26,417 nucleotides of DNA, from the IMG/VR virus record IMGVR_UViG_2703718784_000007. The stretch is one strand, 5' to 3'. The notes under the pieces were generated by a model. The model made no database searches and had not been told where the DNA came from. It saw nothing but the letters and a program-made list of their open reading frames with translations. Shown one piece after another: positions 301 through 25,776 of the stretch. The position numbers and the translations under genes were made by a program. The DNA comes from a virus. Lineage: Duplodnaviria; Heunggongvirae; Uroviricota; Caudoviricetes. The number at the start of each line of letters is the position of its first letter. Positions within the stretch are counted from its first letter, which is position 1.

Positions 301-729
301 ATGTATTGCCGTGCTGTACCGGTTCTTGTTTTGATATTAGCCAGTCTGACAACTGGCTGCACAAAAGATGTATCGACAAATAATTATGATGCTTCGCTGC
401 ATCACTCAGATAAATTAATAAAGTCGCAAAATTTGAGCTTATCGGAACGTACCCCTGATGCCAGTGAAGAAATCCGGCAGTATGCCATTCAGGTCAGGGA
501 AGCCATAGAAGAACAGTTAAAGGATGCGGGTAAGTATTCAGGAAAAGAGTGTTCACTGAGAATGTATATGGCCCCGAATGGTCTTCTGCTACAGGTTAAA
601 AGAGAAAGCGGTGATCCCGATTTATGTCGTGAAGCGATGAATGCAGTAAAGAATGCTGATATACCATCACCACCGTCTTCAGGAGTATATAAAGCATTTA
701 GAAATGGCGTGCTGGATTTTAAACTCTGA
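301..729 (+). CDS. Lipoprotein with TolA C-terminal (domain III)-like domain; candidate moron
   Basis: ATG at 301 with GGAG upstream; N-terminal signal peptide ending in lipobox-like LTTGC; C-terminal ~90 aa closely resembles E. coli TolA domain III as recalled (GKxCxLR..APxGxLL..GDPxLC...IPxPPS...LDFK). Not verified by database search. Confidence 0.8.
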   Translation: MYCRAVPVLVLILASLTTGCTKDVSTNNYDASLHHSDKLIKSQNLSLSERTPDASEEIRQYAIQVREAIEEQLKDAGKYSGKECSLRMYMAPNGLLLQVKRESGDPDLCREAMNAVKNADIPSPPSSGVYKAFRNGVLDFKL

Positions 730-2197: not shown

Positions 2198-4186
2198 ATG
2201 GCATTTAAACACTACGATGTGGTCAGGGCGGCATCGCCGTCAGACCTTGCTGAACGACTGACACAAAAACTGAAGGAGGGGTGGCAGCCATTTGGCAGCC
2301 CTGTCGCCATCACGCCTTATACCCTGATGCAGGCTATTGCGGCGGAAGGTGATGTCACCACGCCGGTGCTGGTTAAACCATCGGGTGACGGGGAGACGGC
2401 TATCAGCAAGACCGGTGAGCCTGAATATTATTATGTTGTCGCGCTGGCGGGTCAGTCAAATGGTATGTCTTTTGGAGAGGGAGTACCGTTACCTGATTCT
2501 TATGATCGCCCTGATCCGAGAATTAAGCAGCTTGCCCGTCGACGTACCGTTACGCCGCGAGGCGTTCCCTGCACCTATAACGATGTTATTCCGGCAGATC
2601 ATTGTCTTCATGATGTGATGGATATGAGTGAAAAAAATCACCCCCGGGCAGACCTCAATAAAGGTCAGTATGGTTGTGTGGGTCAGGGACTGCATATTGC
2701 CAAAAAACTGTTACCGTTTATACCGGCGAATGCGGGCATTCTTCTGGTTCCATGCTGTCGTGGAGGCTCGGGAGTGACTACAGGTAATGAGGGAACATTT
2801 AACGCCTCTTCCGGGGCAAGCCCTGATTCTGCATTGTGGGGAGCTGATAAGCCGCTGTACCAGGATCTGTTAAGTCGCACGAAAGTCGCGCTGGCTAAAA
2901 ATCCCGGAAATATCCTGCTGGCGGTAATCTGGATGCAGGGGGAGAGTGATCTGGCTTCAGGAAGCCAGAGTCATAATGCTCTTTTTACTGGCATGGTACA
3001 GAAATTCCGTGCTGACATCGCTGATATGTCAGGGCAGTGCGTGGGGGGCTCGGCACTGAGCGTTCCGTGGGTTTGTGGCGATACGACGCATTACTGGAAA
3101 GAAAAATATGCTGCGTCTTATGAAACTGTATACGGTGGATATAAAAATAAGGCAGCGCAGAATATTCACTTTGTCCCTTTCATGGTTGATGGAAGCGGGG
3201 TAAATGTGCAGACCAATAATCCGGCAGAAGATCCTGATATTGAAGGTATTGGCTACTCCGGTTCGAAGTGGCGAGACAGTTCTGTCAGCTGGACGTCAGG
3301 TGACAGGGCAAGCCATTTCGGTTCATGGGCGCGGCGTGGAATTATTTCAGATCGTCTTGCAACCGCAATTCTGACCCACGCAGGCAAATACCCGGCGTTT
3401 ATCACCGGGCGGTCAGAAACGGTAGTTGCAGGAGATGAACGGGAAAACGTTACATCCGGAAATTTCCCGTCACCTGTGGAGGATGCTGCGTTATCACAGG
3501 ATGCACCTCAGAGAAGAACGGTTGTTGAGTATAATTCAGCTGTTGAGAAAGACAGCCTCGGTGGTAACTGGGCAGCCCAGCACTGGAATGCCCGGGACGG
3601 TGTCGCCGAGTTTGTTAATGATGAAAGCAGACAGGTGCTGAAGATTAAGCAGCATGAGGGCAAACAGGGACCGTGGATGCTGTCAGCAGGAGTATCAGCT
3701 GAAGATGCCCGTGCTCTGTATGAAAATGGCGGTGAAATAAAACTTGAATTCAGGTTGCCGGATGGTACCCAGGTTGCAGATGACAAATACCTCTTTGGTG
3801 TTTACCTGCCAGTTTCCGGGTGGACTCAGGAAGGCAACGGCAGCAATATGATGGCCTCCTTTTTCACTCAGACAAAAGCCAGTAACCTGGATGTCATGTA
3901 TCACGGTAAAACACAGCCTAATACAAAAATTGAGTCATTCGGTGCGGTTAATAACAACTGGCACACGCTTGTCTTTAAATATAAAGGAGGCGGCAATCAC
4001 CAGGTTATTCCGGTACTTGACGGAGAAGAGAAAACAGGTTTTGCACTGAAAGAAGGTCCGGTCACTTCTGCCTTTACGGTGGATAACATCACAGTGACAG
4101 GTATCAGCGCAAATCAGGGAAAATCTTATCCTGTCATGTTCCGCAGTATCATGGTAAGCATTAACCAGGCAACCTCTTCATCATAA
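2198..4186 (+). CDS. nanS: Prophage sialate O-acetylesterase (NanS-p family; SGNH/SASA esterase domain plus C-terminal domains)
   Basis: 662-aa ORF with GGGAGGA RBS; GQSNG-type catalytic serine motif (VALAGQSNGMSFGEG); size and position immediately upstream of the lysis genes as in Stx-type lambdoid prophages. Confidence 0.85.
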   Translation: MAFKHYDVVRAASPSDLAERLTQKLKEGWQPFGSPVAITPYTLMQAIAAEGDVTTPVLVKPSGDGETAISKTGEPEYYYVVALAGQSNGMSFGEGVPLPDSYDRPDPRIKQLARRRTVTPRGVPCTYNDVIPADHCLHDVMDMSEKNHPRADLNKGQYGCVGQGLHIAKKLLPFIPANAGILLVPCCRGGSGVTTGNEGTFNASSGASPDSALWGADKPLYQDLLSRTKVALAKNPGNILLAVIWMQGESDLASGSQSHNALFTGMVQKFRADIADMSGQCVGGSALSVPWVCGDTTHYWKEKYAASYETVYGGYKNKAAQNIHFVPFMVDGSGVNVQTNNPAEDPDIEGIGYSGSKWRDSSVSWTSGDRASHFGSWARRGIISDRLATAILTHAGKYPAFITGRSETVVAGDERENVTSGNFPSPVEDAALSQDAPQRRTVVEYNSAVEKDSLGGNWAAQHWNARDGVAEFVNDESRQVLKIKQHEGKQGPWMLSAGVSAEDARALYENGGEIKLEFRLPDGTQVADDKYLFGVYLPVSGWTQEGNGSNMMASFFTQTKASNLDVMYHGKTQPNTKIESFGAVNNNWHTLVFKYKGGGNHQVIPVLDGEEKTGFALKEGPVTSAFTVDNITVTGISANQGKSYPVMFRSIMVSINQATSSS

Positions 4187-6988: not shown

Positions 6989-7002
6989 TATCTGTGCCGG
7001 GA

Positions 7003-7335
7003 ATGAAAATGAAAAGAAATCTTCCGTTAATTATTTTGTTGTCTTCTCTGGTTATGGGCTGTACGCAACATAAAACAGATATGCCCCGACAGTTGGTTAA
7101 GGCATTACCACAATATCCGGCCTATGCAGCGGCAAATTATATAAAGGGACGGGTTGATGTGAAGTTTGATATTGGTGCTGATGGTACTGTCACCCGAATT
7201 GAGTTTATCCGTTCAGAGCCGCACCATCTGTTTGATGAGCAGGTTGTAAAAGCGATGGCAAAATGGCGATTTGAGAAGGACAGGCCGCGTAAAGGCGTGA
7301 AGAAAACGTTTATCTTTAGTCCTTCTGCACCCTGA
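7003..7335 (+). CDS. Lipoprotein with TonB C-terminal-domain-like fold; candidate moron
   Basis: Signal peptide with lipobox LVMGC (MKMKRNLPLIILLSSLVMGC); remainder resembles the TonB C-terminal domain as recalled (PQYPA.A......G.V.VKFD...DG.V.....I.S.P...F...V..AM..WR.E). Start chosen at ATG 7003; GTG 6994 or ATG 7009 also possible. Confidence 0.8.
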   Translation: MKMKRNLPLIILLSSLVMGCTQHKTDMPRQLVKALPQYPAYAAANYIKGRVDVKFDIGADGTVTRIEFIRSEPHHLFDEQVVKAMAKWRFEKDRPRKGVKKTFIFSPSAP

Positions 7336-12797: not shown

Positions 12798-14162
12798 ATG
12801 TGGAACCTTTTACGGCGAACCCGAAAAAACCAGAAATCAGGACGTGACGTAAGAGAGGCGGGCTGGACCAGCCTGTTTCAGGCGGTGGCTGAGCCCTTTT
12901 CCGGTGCCTGGCAGCAGGGCGTGAAAGCCGATCCTGAAGCCGTCCTCTCCTTTCATGCGGTGTTTGCATGTATTTCGCTGATATCCCAGGATATCGCCAA
13001 AATGCGGCTGCGTCTTATGCAGACGGATGCGCAGGGGATACGCAGGGAAACGCGCCGGGGGGATATTGCCCGCCTCTGTCGTCGTCCCAACGCCCAGCAG
13101 AACCGCATCCAGTTTTTTGAACTGTGGCTGAACGCCAAACTGCGTCACGGCAATACGGTGGTGCTGAAAATCCGTAATGCCCGGGGGCAGATCAAAGAAC
13201 TGCGTATTCTGGACTGGAACCGGGTTGAACCTCTGGTGGCGGATGACGGCGAGGTGTTCTACCGCATCACGCCGGACCGGAACTGCGGGATCACTGAGGC
13301 GGTGACGGTGCCTGCCCGGGAAGTGATCCACGACCGGTTTAACTGTTTTTTTCATCCGCTTATAGGATTGCCGCCGGTGTATGCCGCCGGGCTGGCGGCC
13401 ACGCAGGGGCATCATATTCAGGAAAATTCGACGTCTTTTTTCAGAAATGGCGGCAGGCCGTCCGGGGTGATTGAGATCCCCGGCAGTATTACGGAAGAAA
13501 ATGCGAAAAAACTGAAGAGCAACTGGGACAGCGGGTATACAGGCGAAAATGCGGGGAAAACGGCCATTCTGAGCAACGGGGCAAAATACAACCCCACGAC
13601 GTTTTCACCGGTGGATGCGCAGACGGTGGAACAACTGAAGATGACCGCTGAAATTGTCTGTTCGGTGTTCCGTGTCCCGGCCTACAAGATTGGCGTGGGA
13701 CAACCGCCTTCCAGTGACAACGTGGAGGCGCTGGAGCAGCAGTATTATTCCCAGTGCCTGCAGACACTGATTGAGTCCATTGAGCTGTTACTGGATGAGG
13801 CGCTGGAAACGGGGGAAAACGAGAGTACGGAATTTGATGTCACCACGCTGCTGAGAATGGACAGTGAGCGGCGCATGAAAACGCTGGGGGATGCGGTGAA
13901 AAATACGCTTCTCACGCCCAATGAAGCCCGAAAACGGGAGAACCTGCCGCCCCTGGCAGGAGGCGATGCACTGTATCTTCAGCAGCAGAACTACAGTCTG
14001 GAAGCGTTGTCCCGCCGTGATGCCCGTGAGGATCCGTTCGCGTCGTCCGGTAAAACAGCTTCCGTGCCTCAGGCGGTCGCTGCATCTGACGGTAATAAGG
14101 CAATCACTGAAACAGAGCATGACGCGGTGAAGGCGATGTTCAGGGGGATTCTGAAAAAATGA
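12798..14162 (+). CDS. Portal protein (HK97 family)
   Basis: 454 aa; first ATG after an in-frame stop at 12780, GGAG RBS; motifs typical of HK97-type portals (AVFACISLISQDIAKM, FFRNGGRPSGV, NAGKTAILSNG). Confidence 0.85.
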   Translation: MWNLLRRTRKNQKSGRDVREAGWTSLFQAVAEPFSGAWQQGVKADPEAVLSFHAVFACISLISQDIAKMRLRLMQTDAQGIRRETRRGDIARLCRRPNAQQNRIQFFELWLNAKLRHGNTVVLKIRNARGQIKELRILDWNRVEPLVADDGEVFYRITPDRNCGITEAVTVPAREVIHDRFNCFFHPLIGLPPVYAAGLAATQGHHIQENSTSFFRNGGRPSGVIEIPGSITEENAKKLKSNWDSGYTGENAGKTAILSNGAKYNPTTFSPVDAQTVEQLKMTAEIVCSVFRVPAYKIGVGQPPSSDNVEALEQQYYSQCLQTLIESIELLLDEALETGENESTEFDVTTLLRMDSERRMKTLGDAVKNTLLTPNEARKRENLPPLAGGDALYLQQQNYSLEALSRRDAREDPFASSGKTASVPQAVAASDGNKAITETEHDAVKAMFRGILKK

Positions 14163-15253
14163 ATGAACGTGAACTGTCCATTATCCGTGCGCTGGGTGAA
14201 GAATTTTCCGCGGTGCTGGCGGATTTACAGCGCACATTTGAGGAGAAAATAGCCGCGCAGGCACAAACGTTTGAAGAAAAACTGGCTTCCCTGTCTGTGG
14301 TATTACAGAAGTGCGTGACGGGCGATGATGTGCGTCCGATGCTTGAACAGATAGTGAAGGAGGCGGTAAGCCATATTCCTGTTCCGCGTGACGGTCGTGA
14401 CTACGATCCGGAAGTACTGCAGAAGGCGGTGAATGATGCGGTCGCAAATATTCCGCAGCCGGCGGACGGTAAAAGTCTCACCCCGGATGATNNNNNNNNN
14501 NNNNNNNNNNNNNNNNNNNNNNNNNNGCGTCCGATGCTTGAACAGATGGTGAAAGAGGCGCTAAGCCATATCCCTGTTCCGCGTGACGGTCGTGACTACG
14601 ATCCGGAAGTACTGCAGAAGGCGGTGAATGATGCGGTCGCAAATATTCCGCAGCCGGCAGACGGTAAAAGTCTCACCCCGGATGATNNGCGTCCGATGCT
14701 TGAACAGATGGTGAAGGAGGCGGTAAGCCATATTCCTGTTCCGCGTGATGGTCGTGACTATGATCCCGATGTTCTGCAGAAGGCTGTTCTGGATGCGGTG
14801 AGTGCCCTGCCGGCTCCGCAGGACGGGCGTGATGCCACGGCACTGGAAATACTCCCCGCCATTGACGATCAAAAATCCTTTCCCCGGGGCACGTATGCCA
14901 CACACCTGGGCGGACTCTGGCGGGCGTATGAAAAAACGCACGGGATGCGGGGATGGGAATGTCTGGTTGACGGGGTGGCGGATATTGACGTCAGCATGAC
15001 GGGTGAACGGTTGTTCTCTGTGGTGGTCCGGCAGAGCAGTGGCCAGCGTACGGAAAAAACATTTTCCCTGCCGGTGATGCTCTACCGCGGTGTGTTCAGA
15101 GCCGGTGAAACCTACCACCCCGGCGATACGGTGACGTGGGGCGGCTCGCTGTGGCACAGCAACAGTATGACCGGTGATAAACCCGGAGAAGCTCATTCAT
15201 CAGGCTGGACCCTGGCTGCAAAACGTGGGCGGGATGCTGGAGGCGGAAAATGA
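14159..15253 (+). CDS. Hypothetical phage structural protein with N-terminal coiled coil and tandem ~54-aa repeats; sequence interrupted by assembly gaps
   Basis: ATGA overlap with portal stop; three visible copies of RPMLEQ.VKEA.SHIPVPRDGRDYDPEVLQKAV.DAV...P.P.DG...; N-runs at 14492-14526 and 14687-14688 lie inside the repeats, so length and frame are provisional. Confidence 0.6.
   Translation: MNERELSIIRALGEEFSAVLADLQRTFEEKIAAQAQTFEEKLASLSVVLQKCVTGDDVRPMLEQIVKEAVSHIPVPRDGRDYDPEVLQKAVNDAVANIPQPADGKSLTPDDXXXXXXXXXXXXRPMLEQMVKEALSHIPVPRDGRDYDPEVLQKAVNDAVANIPQPADGKSLTPDDXRPMLEQMVKEAVSHIPVPRDGRDYDPDVLQKAVLDAVSALPAPQDGRDATALEILPAIDDQKSFPRGTYATHLGGLWRAYEKTHGMRGWECLVDGVADIDVSMTGERLFSVVVRQSSGQRTEKTFSLPVMLYRGVFRAGETYHPGDTVTWGGSLWHSNSMTGDKPGEAHSSGWTLAAKRGRDAGGGK
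14332..14830 (+). repeat. Tandem 162-bp (54-codon) coding repeats, at least 3 copies
   Basis: Copies begin at 14332, 14527 and 14689 (gcgtccgatgcttgaacag...); period 162 bp between copies 2 and 3. Confidence 0.75.
14492..14526. other. Assembly gap (35 N) inside the tandem repeat; second 2-N gap at 14687-14688
   Basis: N characters in the sequence. Confidence 1.
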
Positions 15254-21200: not shown

Positions 21201-21511
21201 ACAGTATTGTGGACACGCCCACGTACTTTGCCTTTGCAAAAGGGGCAGGGCTGATGGGGGAGGCCGGACCTGAAGCCATAATGCCCCTGACCCGGGCAGC
21301 GGATGGTTCACTCGGCGTGCGTGCGGTGGGCAGCATGAACGGCAGTGCGGGTCTGGTGTATTCTCCGGTGTACCACATCGCCATTCAGAATGACGGCGCT
21401 AACGGGCAGATAGGGCCGGAAGCGGCGGGCACCCTTGTGCAACTGATTGACCAGCGGGTACAGGCGGTGATGCTGTCCATGCGACGTGACGGGGGAATGC
21501 TGAGTGGATGA
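18245..21511 (+). CDS. H: Tail tape measure protein
   Basis: 1088 aa; Ala/Gln-rich coiled-coil composition; position after G/GT. Confidence 0.9.
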   Translation: MATLRELIIKISANSQSFQSEIQRASRMGSEYYRTLQNGGRQAAAAAREQRRALAELNSQLTEIRASAVGMTGAFAGAFATGHLISLADEWSSVNARLKQASQSSDEFSSSQKVLMDISQRTGTAFSDNAALFARSAASMREYGYSADDVLKVTEAISTGLKISGASTAEAGSVITQFSQALAQGVLRGEEFNSVNESGDRIIRALAAGMGVARKDLKAMADDGQLTADKVVPALISQLGILRDEYAAMPETVADGITKVENAFMAWVGGANEASGATKTLSGVLNGVAGNIDTVATAAGVLVAVGVARYFGNMASGVGKATTELLAAKSGTVALAAAQADAAVQVQRKAAADALAAERAWQLAQAELAVARNTSAEALVTQNAVAKRRAMIVANAALVQSNHAVAASGKALENATSVTGMLKSGAASLLSLVGGIPGLLMLGAGAWYTVYQRQEQARESARQYASTIDEIRAKLPGMTLPELADNEGKTREALEEQNRLIAEQESKVRGLKTQIADYQRWLQENPQGGSGAEIITHGLAEATGRLAVEQSRLTQMQERARSVQETLASLEYNRVARIREEAAEQNRAYQALLQMNVQHTEFNRLLGLGNELLQQRQGLASVPLRLPQATLDDKQQSALNNTERQLALSRRKGEEKERARLGYAADDLGLVGDTYQEARQRYIRNSMEAWRNNEANKPKSRGGKSETEKAEDSFSRLLKQQKEQLGLAGKNTELAKLKYQTSQGELKTLTEIQKQELLRNAALIDQKKIREQLRAREETLKNDNADARASNDAELLGYGQGERGRERMRELQQIRDGYRQKDADLQSQYQTGDISEDFYRQALAQNAQYLSERLKDQEAFYAESDAQRADWQKGLQEGVSNWVDSASDYASQAAQLATDGISGMVSNITDMLNGNKVEWRSWAASILQEISKVLMNAAIVNGIKMAANSMSGAGGFFGSIGNWLGGAVANAKGGVYTSANLSAYSNSIVDTPTYFAFAKGAGLMGEAGPEAIMPLTRAADGSLGVRAVGSMNGSAGLVYSPVYHIAIQNDGANGQIGPEAAGTLVQLIDQRVQAVMLSMRRDGGMLSG

Positions 21512-21845
21512 GATTAAGACCCTTCACTGGTGTCCCCGGGAAGGGATGCAGGTGACGGAGAAACCGTCGGTGATGACGGTGAAGTTTGGCGACGGTTATC
21601 AGCAGCGTCGTCCGGCAGGACTGAATGCGCAACTGAAGACCTTTCAGGTGGTTTTTCGGGTGACAACGGATGCTGAGCGGGAGGCACTGTCCGCGTTTCT
21701 GTCATGGCATGGTGGTTACCGGGCTTTTTTGTGGAAGCCCCCGAAACATAACCGGACGGTCAGGGTGGTGTGCCGGGAGTGGAGTATTACGGATAACGCC
21801 CGGTACAGTGATTTCAGTTGCACGATAGAGCAGGTAGTTAGATGA
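21504..21845 (+). CDS. M: Minor tail protein M
   Basis: Similarity to lambda gpM as recalled (VKFGDGYQQR.PAGLNA.LKT..V.F.V....E...L..FL..HGG...FLW.PP); start overlaps the H stop. Confidence 0.8.
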   Translation: MDEIKTLHWCPREGMQVTEKPSVMTVKFGDGYQQRRPAGLNAQLKTFQVVFRVTTDAEREALSAFLSWHGGYRAFLWKPPKHNRTVRVVCREWSITDNARYSDFSCTIEQVVR

Positions 21846-22043
21846 GAATTATCCTATAAATCATTCTTTATTGTTTAGTTGTTAATTATTTTTAATCTGT
21901 CTTGTCAGAAAGTGCGAAATCGATCCTGTATTTACATTTTGTTACGTAATATAAATTGAACTAAGAATTTGTATTAAAATATTTTAATTTTTGTTCATGA
22001 CATCTGAATGCATGAATAGTTCAGTTTAAATAAGGATTAAATC
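21846..22043 (+). promoter_or_regulatory. Strongly AT-rich upstream region of the porin gene (candidate own promoter)
   Basis: Visibly AT-rich relative to flanking phage genes; AAGGA RBS before ATG 22044; no confident -35/-10 assignment. Confidence 0.3.
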
Positions 22044-23138
22044 ATGAAAAAAATGACAGTGGCACTTTCTGCTGTAGCAGTTGCAGTGATGTTTGCTGCG
22101 GGGGCGCAGGCAGCAGAAGTTTATAATAAAGATGGTAATAAACTGGATCTTTACGGGCGTGCAACCGCTCTGCATTACTTCTCGGATGATAAAGGTAATG
22201 ACGGAGATCAGACTTACGCTCGTCTCGGCTTTAAAGGCGAAACGCAGATTAATGATCAACTGACCGGATTTGGTCAGTGGGAATACCAGTTCTCTGGTAA
22301 CAAAACGGAATCTGAAGGTTCCGCGGGAAATAAAACCCGTCTGGCATTTGCAGGTCTGAGATTTGCTGATGTTGGTAGCATTGATTACGGTCGTAACTAC
22401 GGTATTGCTTACGATGTCGGATCATATACTGACGTACTGCCAGAGTTTGGTGGTGATGGCTGGACTCAGACCGATAACTTTATGACTGCCCGAACTTCCG
22501 GAGTTCTGACCTACCGTAATACAGATTTCTTTGGGCTGGTTGATGGTCTGAATTTTGCGGCGCAGTATCAGGGCAAAAATGAGCGCGATGACCTCCAGAA
22601 GGCCAATGGTGATGGGTATGGTTTCTCAGCCAGCTATGAGTTTGATGGTTTTGGTCTCGTAGCGGCGTACACGAAATCTGACCGTACTGATAAGCAGGTT
22701 AATGGAGGAAGCTCTGTTGCCAGTGGTAAATATGCTGAAATGTGGGGGGCTGGTCTGAAATATGATGCCAATAATCTGTATATTGCGACAATATATTCAG
22801 AGACCCAAAATATGACGGCTTTTGGCGATAAGGTTAACGGCATTGCGGATAAGGCAGAAAACGTTGAAGCTGTAGCGCAATATCAGTTTGATTTTGGTTT
22901 ACGTCCATCACTGGCATTCCTGCAGTCTCGTGGGCAGGAGGTTATAGTTGGTGGGAAAAACTATGGGGATCAGGACCTGGTTAAATATATTGATGTTGGA
23001 GCAACATATTACTTCAACAAAAATATGTCTACCTATGTTGATTATAAAATTAACCTGATTGACGAAAACAAATTTACTCAGAAAGCCGGTATTACTACAG
23101 ATGATATTGTTGCTGTGGGTATGACTTATCAGTTCTGA
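22044..23138 (+). CDS. Outer membrane general porin (OmpC/OmpF/PhoE family); moron inside the tail module
   Basis: Signal peptide [38 protein letters not shown]; porin hallmarks (FGLRPS..., C-terminal ...YQF); located between tail genes M and L. Confidence 0.9.
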
Positions 23139-23312
23139 TTGTTGCTGGTAAGTTAATGGTTACAGGCCGTCTGCCCTTACAGGCGGTCTGTATCAATGAA
23201 AACAGTGTTTTCATTGGTCACTGCAATCAGCAATTGCCATCTGGCATATGCTGATTTAACTTTCTGTTATTACCTTTATTGGTTTTATTTTAAATTGGAC
23301 TTTTATTGTTCG

Positions 23313-23336
23313 GGGCGCGGTTGCGCCCCTTTTTTA
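23313..23336 (+). terminator. Intrinsic terminator of the porin gene (ggggcgc-ggtt-gcgcccc followed by tttttt)
   Basis: 7-bp GC stem, 4-nt loop, T6. Confidence 0.7.
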
Positions 23337-23347
23337 TGGGCGGATAT

Positions 23348-24046
23348 ATGCAGGATATTCACGAAGCAAGCCTGAACGAGTCGGTTAAATCAGAGCAGTC
23401 ACCGCGGGTGGTGCTCTGGGAAATCGACCTGACTGTGCAGGGCGGTGAACGGTATTTTTTCTGCAATGAGCTGAATGAAAAAGGGGAGCCGGTGACCTGG
23501 CAGGGGCGGAAGTATGAGGCGTACCCGATTGAGGGCAGCGGCTTTGAGATGAACGGAAAGGGCAGCAGTGCCCGCCCGTCGCTGACGGTGTCCAATCTGT
23601 TCGGCCTTGTCACCGGGATGGCGGAGGATTTGCAGAGCCTGGTGGGTGCCACGGTGGTCCGCCGCCGGGTGTATGCCCGTTTTCTGGATGCGGTGAATTT
23701 TGTGGCGGGGAATCCGGAGGCCGACCCGGAGCAGGAGCTGACGGACCGGTGGGTGGTGGAGCAGATGTCATCGCTGACAGCCATGACGGCCTCGTTTGTG
23801 CTGGCGACACCGACGGAGACGGACGGGGCGCTGTTTCCCGGTCGCATCATGCTGGCGAACACCTGTATGTGGGATTACCGGGGCGATGAATGCGGGTATA
23901 ACGGTCCGGCAGTGGCGGATGAGTTCGACAACCCCACCACGGATATCCGGAAGGACAGATGCAGTAAATACATGCGCGGGTGTGAGATGCGCGGCATGGC
24001 GGTTAATTTTGGCGGTTTCCTTTCCATTAATAAACTTTCGCAGTAA
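23348..24046 (+). CDS. L: Minor tail protein L
   Basis: Start at ATG 23348 (MQDIHEASLNE...), since the track start 23306 overlaps the porin terminator; close similarity to lambda gpL as recalled (…GFLSINKLSQ end). Confidence 0.9.
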   Translation: MQDIHEASLNESVKSEQSPRVVLWEIDLTVQGGERYFFCNELNEKGEPVTWQGRKYEAYPIEGSGFEMNGKGSSARPSLTVSNLFGLVTGMAEDLQSLVGATVVRRRVYARFLDAVNFVAGNPEADPEQELTDRWVVEQMSSLTAMTASFVLATPTETDGALFPGRIMLANTCMWDYRGDECGYNGPAVADEFDNPTTDIRKDRCSKYMRGCEMRGMAVNFGGFLSINKLSQ

Positions 24047-25378: not shown

Positions 25379-25382
25379 AAAT

Positions 25383-25545
25383 AAAAAAATCCCGCAGTGC
25401 TCGGCGCCTGCGGGAAGAGAACGATGTTGACTAACCTGTTGGCGTTTTATTTTTATTTACCCGCAAAAAATGTAACGCAGCGTCATTATTGTGGCTACAG
25501 GTAATTTGCAGAAATGTGAATAAATTCAGACTTTTTATCCGGTAG
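25383..25545. repeat. Copy 1 of duplicated ~160-bp non-coding element in the I-J spacer
   Basis: Direct repeat of 25614-25768; hairpin tcccgcag/ctgcggga at 25390-25415 preceded by an A7 tract (a terminator when read on the minus strand). Confidence 0.6.
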
Positions 25546-25613
25546 CGGGGGAGCGGAAGCCAGGCGGGTATCTGTGGAAGAAGACAGATAACATCGTGCC
25601 GGGTTTAAGGGAT

Positions 25614-25768
25614 AAAAAAATCCCGCAGAATCAGCGGAGCTGCGGGAGAGAACGATGAAGATTAACGTTATGGAGTTATTTTTCAGGCATCAAAAATGTA
25701 ACGCAGCGTCATTATTGTGGCTACAGGCAATTGCCGGAAATGTGAAGAATTTCAGAAATTTTATTCCG
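25614..25768. repeat. Copy 2 of duplicated ~160-bp non-coding element in the I-J spacer
   Basis: Same conserved blocks (aaaaaaatcccgcag...ctgcgggagagaacgatg...aaaaatgtaacgcagcgtcattattgtggctacagg...gaaatgtgaa); hairpin 25621-25647 has an identical stem and a different loop. Confidence 0.6.
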
Positions 25769-25776
25769 TCATGACA

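Follow-up and report, generated by a model that had tools for sequence, protein, structure and literature searches.

Why should a complete porin gene lie between two tail genes of a lambdoid prophage? The question is raised by the IMG/VR virus record IMGVR_UViG_2703718784_000007 (Caudoviricetes), a stretch of 26,417 nucleotides that is called the window in what follows. Its genes are those of the late region in a lambdoid prophage of Shiga-toxin-type Escherichia coli: lysis genes, the terminase, head genes and the tail genes as far as the start of J. A preliminary description of it had proposed that a moron carrying a porin of the OmpC/OmpF family is inserted between the tail genes M and L. 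As far as composition and position are concerned this proposal holds, and it can be refined in three ways: the porin belongs to the Lc/NmpC/OmpD branch; the inserted unit, referred to here as the cassette, includes a 3' untranslated region (3'UTR) that resembles the porin-linked RNA IpeX; and the cassette is a recurrent mobile unit of several tail-module lineages rather than a one-off. Observed directly were the insertion and where it begins and ends, a composition foreign to its surroundings, an intact porin gene that is under purifying selection and varies in its surface loops, the conserved IpeX-related structure of the 3'UTR and the spread of the unit among tail modules. As to its role, we consider it fairly probable that the cassette is a horizontally acquired moron that swaps the porin of the host and acts by receptor exclusion, its expression and function being predictions.

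The porin cassette at the M-L junction

Alignment with the empty site placed the insertion at positions 21846-23347 of the window (1,502 bp), exactly between the stop codon of M and the start of L. The region contains the following features.

21504-21845, + strand: tail gene M, the left flank (Pfam Phage_min_tail, E 3e-33), with its stop codon TGA at 21843-21845
21846-22043, + strand: AT-rich leader or regulatory region, 198 nt, GC 0.232, with the Shine-Dalgarno (SD) sequence AAGGA at 22032-22036
22044-23138, + strand: porin gene, 364 aa (Pfam Porin_1, PF00267, E 4e-143)
22044-22112, + strand: signal peptide of the porin, 23 aa
22683-22730, + strand: surface loop L5 of the porin, residues about 214-229, placed by an alignment of 14 alleles on the predicted strands
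23139-23335, + strand: IpeX-like structured 3'UTR, 197 nt, recognised by folding z-score, covariation and covariance models
23336-23347, + strand: right end of the insert, with an SD-like GGGCGGA for gene L at 23338-23344 that is conserved as ATGGGYGGA in most alleles
23348-24046, + strand: tail gene L, the right flank (Pfam Phage_tail_L, E 1e-91)

The product of M is identical to WP_000343408.1 in RefSeq. At the empty site the stop codon of M overlaps the start codon of L (TGATG), as in BP-4795 and about 150 other phage records (151 with an empty M-L junction), and M and L are contiguous in most related phages and in most E. coli prophages. The cassette thus interrupts an otherwise contiguous junction, as had been proposed, and its right end substitutes the SD-like GGGCGGA for the translational coupling of M and L. 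A matching M-L region was present in 1,902 E. coli genomes, only 92 of which had the site filled, and a filled site was found in none of the sequenced phages in INPHARED. On these grounds the position of the cassette is not ancestral, a point on which the preliminary description had made its own proposal depend. Its impression of a deviant composition was borne out by a formal calculation: the GC content of the insert is 0.409 against 0.546 for the remainder of the window, in which every other segment of 1,502 nt has at least 0.449, and the GC content at third codon positions (GC3) is 0.378 for the porin as opposed to 0.60-0.73 in the phage genes. The AT-rich region that had been noticed upstream of the gene corresponds to the leader listed above.

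The porin gene is complete and carries a signal peptide, as described earlier. Residues 29-364 align with profile positions 1-337 of the 337 of PF00267, and a solved OmpC structure was matched with an E-value of 9e-135 (OmpC, PhoE and OmpF chains 1e-135 to 1e-104). Since the mature chains of solved OmpC structures begin at residue 24, cleavage of the signal peptide is placed between AQA and AEV. This yields a mature porin of 341 aa with an N-terminus that fits the AE(V/I)YNKDGNK type of general porins; the L3 motif PEFGGD (within LPEFGGDGW) and a C-terminal YQF can be read from the translation. An AlphaFold2 model of moderate confidence (predicted local distance difference test score 71.8) contains 16 strands, and the porin is accordingly modelled as a 16-strand barrel.

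The assignment to an OmpC/OmpF family was correct in that the protein is a general porin of the Porin_1 family, whereas orthology with OmpC or OmpF (58-62% identity) did not stand. Its identity with Lc of phage PA-2 amounts to 71%, as compared with 61-62% for OmpC, PhoE and OmpN of K-12 (OmpC 61%) and 58% for OmpF; with Lc, NmpC and phage proteins named 'OmpD' it shares 69-73%, which is above any K-12 porin. By these values it belongs to the Lc/NmpC/OmpD branch. The NCBIfam subfamily 'porin OmpC' was passed (519 bits versus a cutoff of 484), and the PhoE and OmpF equivalogs remained under their cutoffs. An OmpC orthologue, as the RefSeq/PGAP label 'porin OmpC' would have it, was considered and rejected: identity to OmpC is 61% versus 71% to Lc, the gene lies between phage M and L rather than at the ompC-micF locus, and it is only the broad NCBIfam model that was passed. 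The genuine ompC leader was found in 5,371 of 5,426 E. coli genomes.

Protein and locus searches retrieved 14 distinct relatives that are at least 80% identical and 364-387 aa long, at 39 loci drawn from NCBI, Logan and IMG/VR, one of which comes from an assembly that bears the name Citrobacter farmeri. The open reading frame (ORF) is intact in every one of the 14 alleles. They differ mainly in the surface loops L4-L8: columns that are variable or contain insertions or deletions make up 83 of the 162 in extracellular loops as against 47 of the 210 in the barrel and elsewhere. L5 is shortest in the window allele, and other alleles have up to 27 extra residues there. The ratio of nonsynonymous to synonymous divergence (dN/dS) between alleles is 0.05-0.18, with dS reaching more than 1, which indicates strong purifying selection; the barrel alone gives 0.02-0.08 and the surface loops give about 0.1-0.4. 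The common allele of the OkiPb01681 type is a mosaic relative to that of the window, being near-identical up to codon ~200 and about 85% identical thereafter, with flanks that are near-identical again; it contains a 75-nt loop insertion in L5. The low dN/dS at a dS of at least 1, the loop variation and the mosaic allele together suggest that the gene is old and functional and that it diversifies at the cell surface.

At all 39 loci the porin lies between M and L, and a 350-aa relative in a truncated contig is located directly upstream of L. The flanking M proteins are 47-100% identical to that of the window, and some loci have true lambda-type tail modules. Phage porins of the NmpC/Lc type, about 73% identical, all occupy other sites; DLP12 and 50 NmpC-type loci from IMG/VR are without M and L flanks. 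Among 5,426 complete E. coli genomes about 105 (approximately 2%) carry the cassette, six of them with the allele of the window, and the carriers are largely E. coli that produce Shiga toxin (STEC) and bovine isolates. Prophages that are identical over 21400-23800 occur in five complete genomes of human STEC; that of strain S19-651 adjoins an ompW remnant. No member of the porin clade was found in the sequenced phages of INPHARED, and literature searches returned no description of a porin between M and L. At the left junction of locus L012 (5653-5800) a lambda-type M ends at its stop codon; next come a degenerate 5' end of L (about 75 nt, with a stop codon), about 45 nt of an HK97-type M 3' end like that of the window and finally the cassette. 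This order would be the expected remains of one illegitimate and one homologous crossover, and such a scar shows transfer between tail modules.

A structured RNA between porin and terminator

The strong intrinsic terminator that the preliminary description had noticed was located at 23312-23335 and has seven G-C pairs. No remark had been made on the 173 nt that separate it from the stop codon of the porin. This part of the cassette is organized as follows.

23161-23192, + strand: 3'UTR hairpin SL1
23194-23216, + strand: 3'UTR hairpin SL2
23225-23256, + strand: 3'UTR hairpin SL3
23256-23311, + strand: single-stranded, A/U-rich stretch between SL3 and the terminator
23312-23335, + strand: intrinsic terminator, GGGGCGCGGTTGCGCCCC followed by T6 (7-bp G-C stem, 4-nt loop and U6 in a terminator scan)

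The 3'UTR folds with a z-score of -7.2 relative to shuffled sequences. In 11 distinct alleles the three hairpins and the terminator comprise 38 pairs, which are paired in 99.3% of cases and of which nine are altered on both sides; none of 500 shuffles reached this value, and controls in which the structure was slid along the alignment were 36-46% paired. The terminator stem is invariant in the 11 alleles. An alignment fitted to the covariance model gave 96% pairing and 23 pairs altered on both sides, figures that lean towards the model used to align. The Jukes-Cantor divergence of the 3'UTR is 0.07-0.31, that is 3-13 times below the dS of the porin for the same pairs of alleles. The 3'UTR is therefore a conserved structured RNA with compensatory changes and not a spacer.

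Castillo-Keller et al. (2006) are said to have given IpeX its definition. IpeX lies within the 3'UTR of a phage porin gene, between the stop codon and the Rho-independent terminator (PMC12197685), and it has been found experimentally to lower OmpC and OmpF (PMC12197685, PMC8065619). The 3'UTR at 23139-23335 is placed in the same way, between porin stop codon and Rho-independent terminator. The nmpC 3'UTR of DLP12, to which IpeX was mapped, has a like layout, with hairpins, a single-stranded AACCUUCUGUUAU and the same GGGGCG...CGCCCC stem in which IpeX ends, and short motifs common to the window 3'UTR and ipeX are visible in an alignment. A covariance model built from the M-L 3'UTRs (R1) matched the NmpC-type 3'UTRs of DLP12, PA-2, E. 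albertii and IMG/VR over their full length (41-44 bits, E ~1e-7, the E-values being rough because of a shortened calibration); for IpeX of DLP12 and PA-2 the score was about 42 bits with an E of about 5e-8. It also matched the 3'UTR of a porin of a P1/P7-like element (47 bits) and that of porin locus L180 (88 bits). At 78 species-representative chromosomal porin loci it gave no hit with E<0.01, and at ompC, ompF, phoE and ompN of K-12 nothing with E below 0.2. The reciprocal model from NmpC-type IpeX (R2) matched the M-L 3'UTRs at 21-25 bits. The matches of R1 and R2, the empty chromosomal loci and the short, simple ends of chromosomal OmpD-type genes lead us to regard the element as an IpeX-like RNA whose sequence has diverged and which is specific to porin genes carried by phages.

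A search of the region against Rfam returned a chance match to NsiR9 (E 0.85) only. The genuine IpeX of DLP12 gave nothing either, from which it follows that Rfam holds no IpeX family. The RNA is unrelated to svsR, a cI-linked prophage small RNA that acts on lamB (PMC12247714). A small ORF at 23196-23375 was rejected, as its ATG is missing from other alleles, in which a deletion of 13 nt also puts it out of frame.

Proposed receptor exclusion and its alternatives

The IpeX-like 3'UTR provides a concrete mechanism for the idea, put forward in the preliminary description, that a porin expressed from a lysogen could alter receptor availability. In the lysogen the cassette would be transcribed from a promoter of its own, possibly an OmpR-responsive one, and transcription would end at the cassette terminator, leaving the downstream tail genes L to J silent. 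During lytic growth the Q-modified polymerase would read through this terminator; read-through by Q antitermination is established for the lambda late operon. The transcript would yield a general porin, and its 3'UTR would lower the synthesis of host OmpC and probably of OmpF too. The likely means would be pairing of the single-stranded UUAACUUUCUGUUAUUACCUUUAU with the ribosome-binding sites of ompC and ompF, in the way that IpeX of PA-2 and DLP12 lowers OmpC and OmpF. The host porin that serves as phage receptor would be replaced by one supplied by the phage, so that permeability is kept and OmpC-dependent phages, relatives of the prophage itself included, are excluded. Surface antigenicity and the uptake of small molecules would change as well. 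The elements on which this mechanism depends are listed below.

21931-21950, + strand: OmpR-box-like element TTTACATTTTGTTACGTAAT, which seems to resemble C1 of K-12 ompC (TTTACATTTTGAAACATCTA) and F1 of ompF
21991-21996 and 22015-22020, + strand: weak candidate -35 (TTGTTC) and -10 (AATAGT) with ompC-like spacing
23256-23270, + strand: candidate seed UUAACUUUCUGUUAU, complementary to ompC -19 to -5 including the SD
23267-23279, + strand: candidate seed UUAUUACCUUUAU, overlapping UUAACUUUCUGUUAU and complementary to ompF -16 to -4

As regards the promoter, an alignment of five alleles revealed leader blocks that are conserved in all M-L alleles, among them AAAGTGCGAAATCGATC, TTGAACTAAGAATTTGTATTAAAATATTTT, GTTCATGACAT and ATGAATAGTTCA. 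The Jukes-Cantor distance of the leader between alleles is 0.015-0.54 as compared with a porin dS of 0.3-1.26, and the noncoding flanks of the porin diverge 3-13 times slower than synonymous sites. Within the OmpR-like element, TTTACATTTTGTTACG (21931-21946) occurs once in the window with 0.02 occurrences expected. We take C1 and F1 to be the sites of ompC and ompF that were identified by OmpR footprinting. The L002 allele has 17 nt (CTTGCATTTACATTTTG) in common with the ompC upstream region. The conserved blocks and the resemblance to an OmpR box together suggest that the cassette has its own promoter, which may be OmpR-dependent. A divergent upstream RNA like micF was considered and rejected, as there was no Rfam hit and promoter-like sites on the minus strand occurred at chance level. 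As a separate observation, UUUAAAUUGGACU in the 3'UTR (23290-23302) pairs over 13 bp with AGUUCAGUUUAAA in the leader (22020-22032), just upstream of the cassette SD; this could be due to chance or to a 5'-3' interaction within the messenger RNA (mRNA).

Pairing with the host mRNAs was evaluated by the longest contiguous helix. This measure replaced the RNAduplex energy of the whole 3'UTR, which beat shuffles for ompC but is dominated by the GC-rich arms of the hairpins. The helix of the window seed with ompC is 15 bp long and contiguous, with two G-U pairs; it was reached in none of 500 dinucleotide shuffles, and the maximum among 47 unrelated start regions was 12. With ompF the helix is 13 bp, a length reached by 11 of 500 shuffles. 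AACCUUCUGUUAUAU of DLP12 IpeX pairs over 15 bp (one G-U) with ompC -21 to -7 (0/500 shuffles), a second group of M-L alleles over 14 bp with ompF (3-4/500) and over 12 bp with the start codon region of ompC, and the P7-like element over 16 bp with ompF (0/500). Complementarity to ompC or ompF was seen in four classes of the element; the start regions of phoE and ompN had no such complementarity. Of 5,426 E. coli genomes, 5,362 have an ompC target region with 99% identity or more, and ten variants of IpeX all share an unaltered AACCTTCTGTTATATATTACC. For the present the pairing is to be regarded as a lead and not as a result. A more general proposal, which we put forward tentatively and hold with less than even confidence, is that IpeX is one of a wider family of porin-linked 3'UTR RNAs, which accompany phage porin genes to at least three kinds of site: the region between Q and S, the junction of M and L, and P1/P7-like elements. 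Its members would be base-pairing repressors whose conserved single-stranded stretch occludes the ribosome-binding sites of host ompC and/or ompF, with 15 bp to ompC for IpeX and the window element and 14-16 bp to ompF in other classes.

The receptor was approached through the tip of the J protein. Over its last 250 residues J, as encoded by the identical prophage in L001, aligns with J of phage phi330 at 80% identity and with no gaps, and its identity to each of the J tips of lambda and lambda h434 is 54%. J tips of the phi330 type occur in two further porin-bearing prophages, one of which has a lambda-type tail. Schnaitman's work reportedly showed that PA-2, too, uses OmpC and lowers OmpC in its lysogens. 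The receptor of phi330 is OmpC, for the phage does not plate on a delta-ompC strain and complementation rescues plating (PMC12502783), and a lowered OmpC in lysogens of PA-2 has been recorded (PMC8065619).

A number of observations weigh against receptor exclusion as set out above. That the prophage uses OmpC is suggested by the 80% identity of the J tips only, and of four prophages with the porin that were examined, one carries another type of J tip. The case for a promoter consists of conservation and resemblance to an OmpR box; a simple scan found no sigma-70 consensus on the + strand of the leader, with a total number of sites at chance level, and a leader of 23% GC is also of the kind that is silenced by H-NS. 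As for the kinship with IpeX, besides the rough calibration of the covariance models, the R2 match on the window covers only the terminator-proximal 54 nt (23283-23336, 24.7 bits), and a sequence-only IpeX profile run with nhmmer reached a non-significant E of 0.24, in the terminator region only. With respect to the pairing, duplex energies of the whole 3'UTR for ompC and ompF are no better than those for the 47 unrelated start regions, one chance run of 15 bp occurred among the controls, for IpeX and in a structured hairpin arm, and the second group of M-L alleles has another motif at the ompC-pairing position. In addition, according to a secondary source IpeX is not complementary to ompC (PMC10690425).

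The unexceptional duplex energies and the statement just cited would be expected if the cassette served plain lysogenic conversion, in which the porin changes the flux of nutrients, bile or antibiotics or the antigenicity of the cell, the 3'UTR does no more than stabilize or terminate the mRNA, and phages are not excluded from their receptor. An intact porin under purifying selection fits this explanation, and the hypervariable loops are accounted for by immune or colicin pressure as well as by phage pressure. However, three hairpins maintained by compensatory changes and a single-stranded stretch that is more conserved than synonymous sites exceed what a terminator needs, and chromosomal relatives of the porin do with a 3' end of 20-30 nt. 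The 15-bp match also lies exactly on the SD of ompC, and the related IpeX lowers OmpC and OmpF in experiments (PMC12197685, PMC8065619). We therefore regard plain conversion as unlikely.

A function in the lytic cycle seems to us a little less likely still. The cassette would then be silent in lysogens, for instance by the action of H-NS on the AT-rich leader, and be expressed mainly from the Q-antiterminated late transcript, so that a late shut-off of OmpC spares progeny virions from being lost to debris and vesicles. The orientation of the cassette in the sense of the late genes, unlike the antisense nmpC of DLP12, is in keeping with this, as are the leader GC of 0.232, the failure to find a sigma-70 consensus promoter and the likeness of the J tip to that of an OmpC-dependent phage. 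Yet a strong terminator at the end and conserved upstream blocks with an OmpR-like box are the architecture of an independently transcribed unit, the OmpC already present could hardly give way to porin synthesized only in the last minutes of the cell, and the analogous porin of PA-2 is made in lysogens (PMC8065619, citing Schnaitman 1975). Finally, a chromosomal ompC copy brought in by misassembly, or a decaying pseudogene remnant, for which the RefSeq name 'porin OmpC' might speak, is refuted for practical purposes by the recurrence of these junctions in 86-92 complete genomes as well as in independent contigs from IMG/VR, Logan and NCBI, by the identity to OmpC of only 61%, by the 14 of 14 intact alleles with their dN/dS of 0.05-0.18 and by a true ompC elsewhere in essentially all genomes. 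Exclusion of OmpC-dependent phages by a swapped porin thus remains the reading that we favour.

Neighbouring cargo and kinship with known phage porins

In the window K follows directly after L. In phi330 (L178 5906-7501) the M-L junction is empty and another insert, consisting of a hypothetical gene, an Arc-like repressor and the anti-repressor Ant, separates L from K; morons appear to have settled repeatedly at junctions between tail genes. Past the end of the window, downstream of J, the same prophage (L001 28222-38250) encodes a protein of the Lom family, an adhesin like YadA and, from the S6 family, an autotransporter peptidase (SPATE-type), after which the ompW remnant follows; because of these genes the prophage can be called cargo-rich. 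Two small ORFs of the window (301-729 and 6994-7335) contain only a TolA C-terminal domain (E 3e-22) and only a TonB C-terminal domain (E 6e-15), respectively. They are further cargo directed at the envelope, and colicins or phages that depend on Tol or Ton could be impeded by them. A 662-aa protein resembling sialate O-acetylesterases of the SASA family is encoded at 2198-4186, upstream of the lysis genes, as in the late regions of Stx phages; neither stx genes nor tRNAs were found within the window.

The portal gene consists of two ORFs that overlap (12798-14162 and 14159-15253, together 12798-15253) and is called frameshifted in RefSeq. In strain S19-651 the portal gene (L001 9842-13855) also contains IS600, which the window is without, and the prophage may be defective in some hosts. 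Between the tail genes I and J (25381-25769) a tandem duplication of about 230 nt coincides with a dip in GC content and comprises repeat blocks of 78, 40 and 17 nt with 75-100% identity. Each repeat unit starts with ATAAAAAAATCCCGCAG...CTGCGGGA, which on the minus strand reads as a hairpin followed by a T-run, i.e. an intrinsic terminator. The repeats had no match in Rfam and may encode a pair of small RNAs on the minus strand.

The cassette belongs to a known kind, that of a phage porin with IpeX, of which it is an undescribed member distinguished by clade, site and orientation. With Lc of PA-2 and NmpC of DLP12 (qsr') it shares a phage-borne general porin of about 71% identity with a similar signal peptide and a long 3'UTR from the stop codon to the GGGGCG...CGCCCC terminator, in which two to three hairpins are followed by a single-stranded AAC(C/U)UUCUGUUAU; GC3 is likewise low in lc (0.40, against 0.38 for the cassette porin). 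Unlike these, it forms a separate porin clade (at least 80% identity within the M-L clade and 69-73% to Lc and NmpC), the primary sequence of its 3'UTR has largely diverged and its L5 is hypervariable in length. The site differs as well: nmpC and lc occupy the opposite strand at a place between Q and the lysis genes, whereas the cassette, between M and L, reads in the same direction as the late operon. The P1/P7-like plasmid prophages also carry a porin (nmpC of P7) that is 64-69% identical, and locus L182 has an IpeX-like 3'UTR (47-66 bits); however, the replicon and the context are different, and the longest complementarity of the P7-like seed is to ompF (16 bp) and not to ompC.

Chromosomal OmpD/OmpC-like porins of Salmonella, Citrobacter and Enterobacter are 69-72% identical and have the same fold and motifs, but their genes have a short 3' end with a simple terminator and no IpeX-like element. 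E. coli OmpC resembles the cassette porin in that the latter passes the NCBIfam 'porin OmpC' subfamily and has an upstream box like the OmpR site C1; it differs in identity (61%) and in locus, the cassette not being at ompC-micF and the true ompC being present as well. In its plan, an extra gene of deviant composition for an envelope protein, with its own terminator, between genes that are adjacent in relatives, the cassette is like the morons of lambdoid tail regions, for which lom of lambda and gp15 of HK97 are reportedly examples and the concept of which is said to be due to Juhala, Hendrix and colleagues. It differs from lom and gp15 in that a full-size porin is combined with a predicted regulatory RNA to form a two-part module.

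What is added to the known phage porins is an RNA family supported by covariation and the hypothesis of ompC/ompF pairing. An alignment with covariation is now available for the IpeX type of RNA, which has no Rfam family, together with a testable pairing model for the silencing of host porins by such RNAs. If the wider-family proposal were true it would settle the action of IpeX, which according to the sources is not explained by complementarity, and would define a modular cassette for replacing the receptor porin. The gene is carried by about 2% of complete E. coli genomes under the mere label 'porin OmpC'. Porins supplied by phages alter what enters or attaches to a pathogen, be it antibiotics, bile, colicins, antibodies or other phages. 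If the favoured reading is true, lysogens of the cassette are predicted to have altered levels of OmpC and OmpF and to be resistant to OmpC-dependent phages, which would bear on phage therapy and on the spread of Stx phages.

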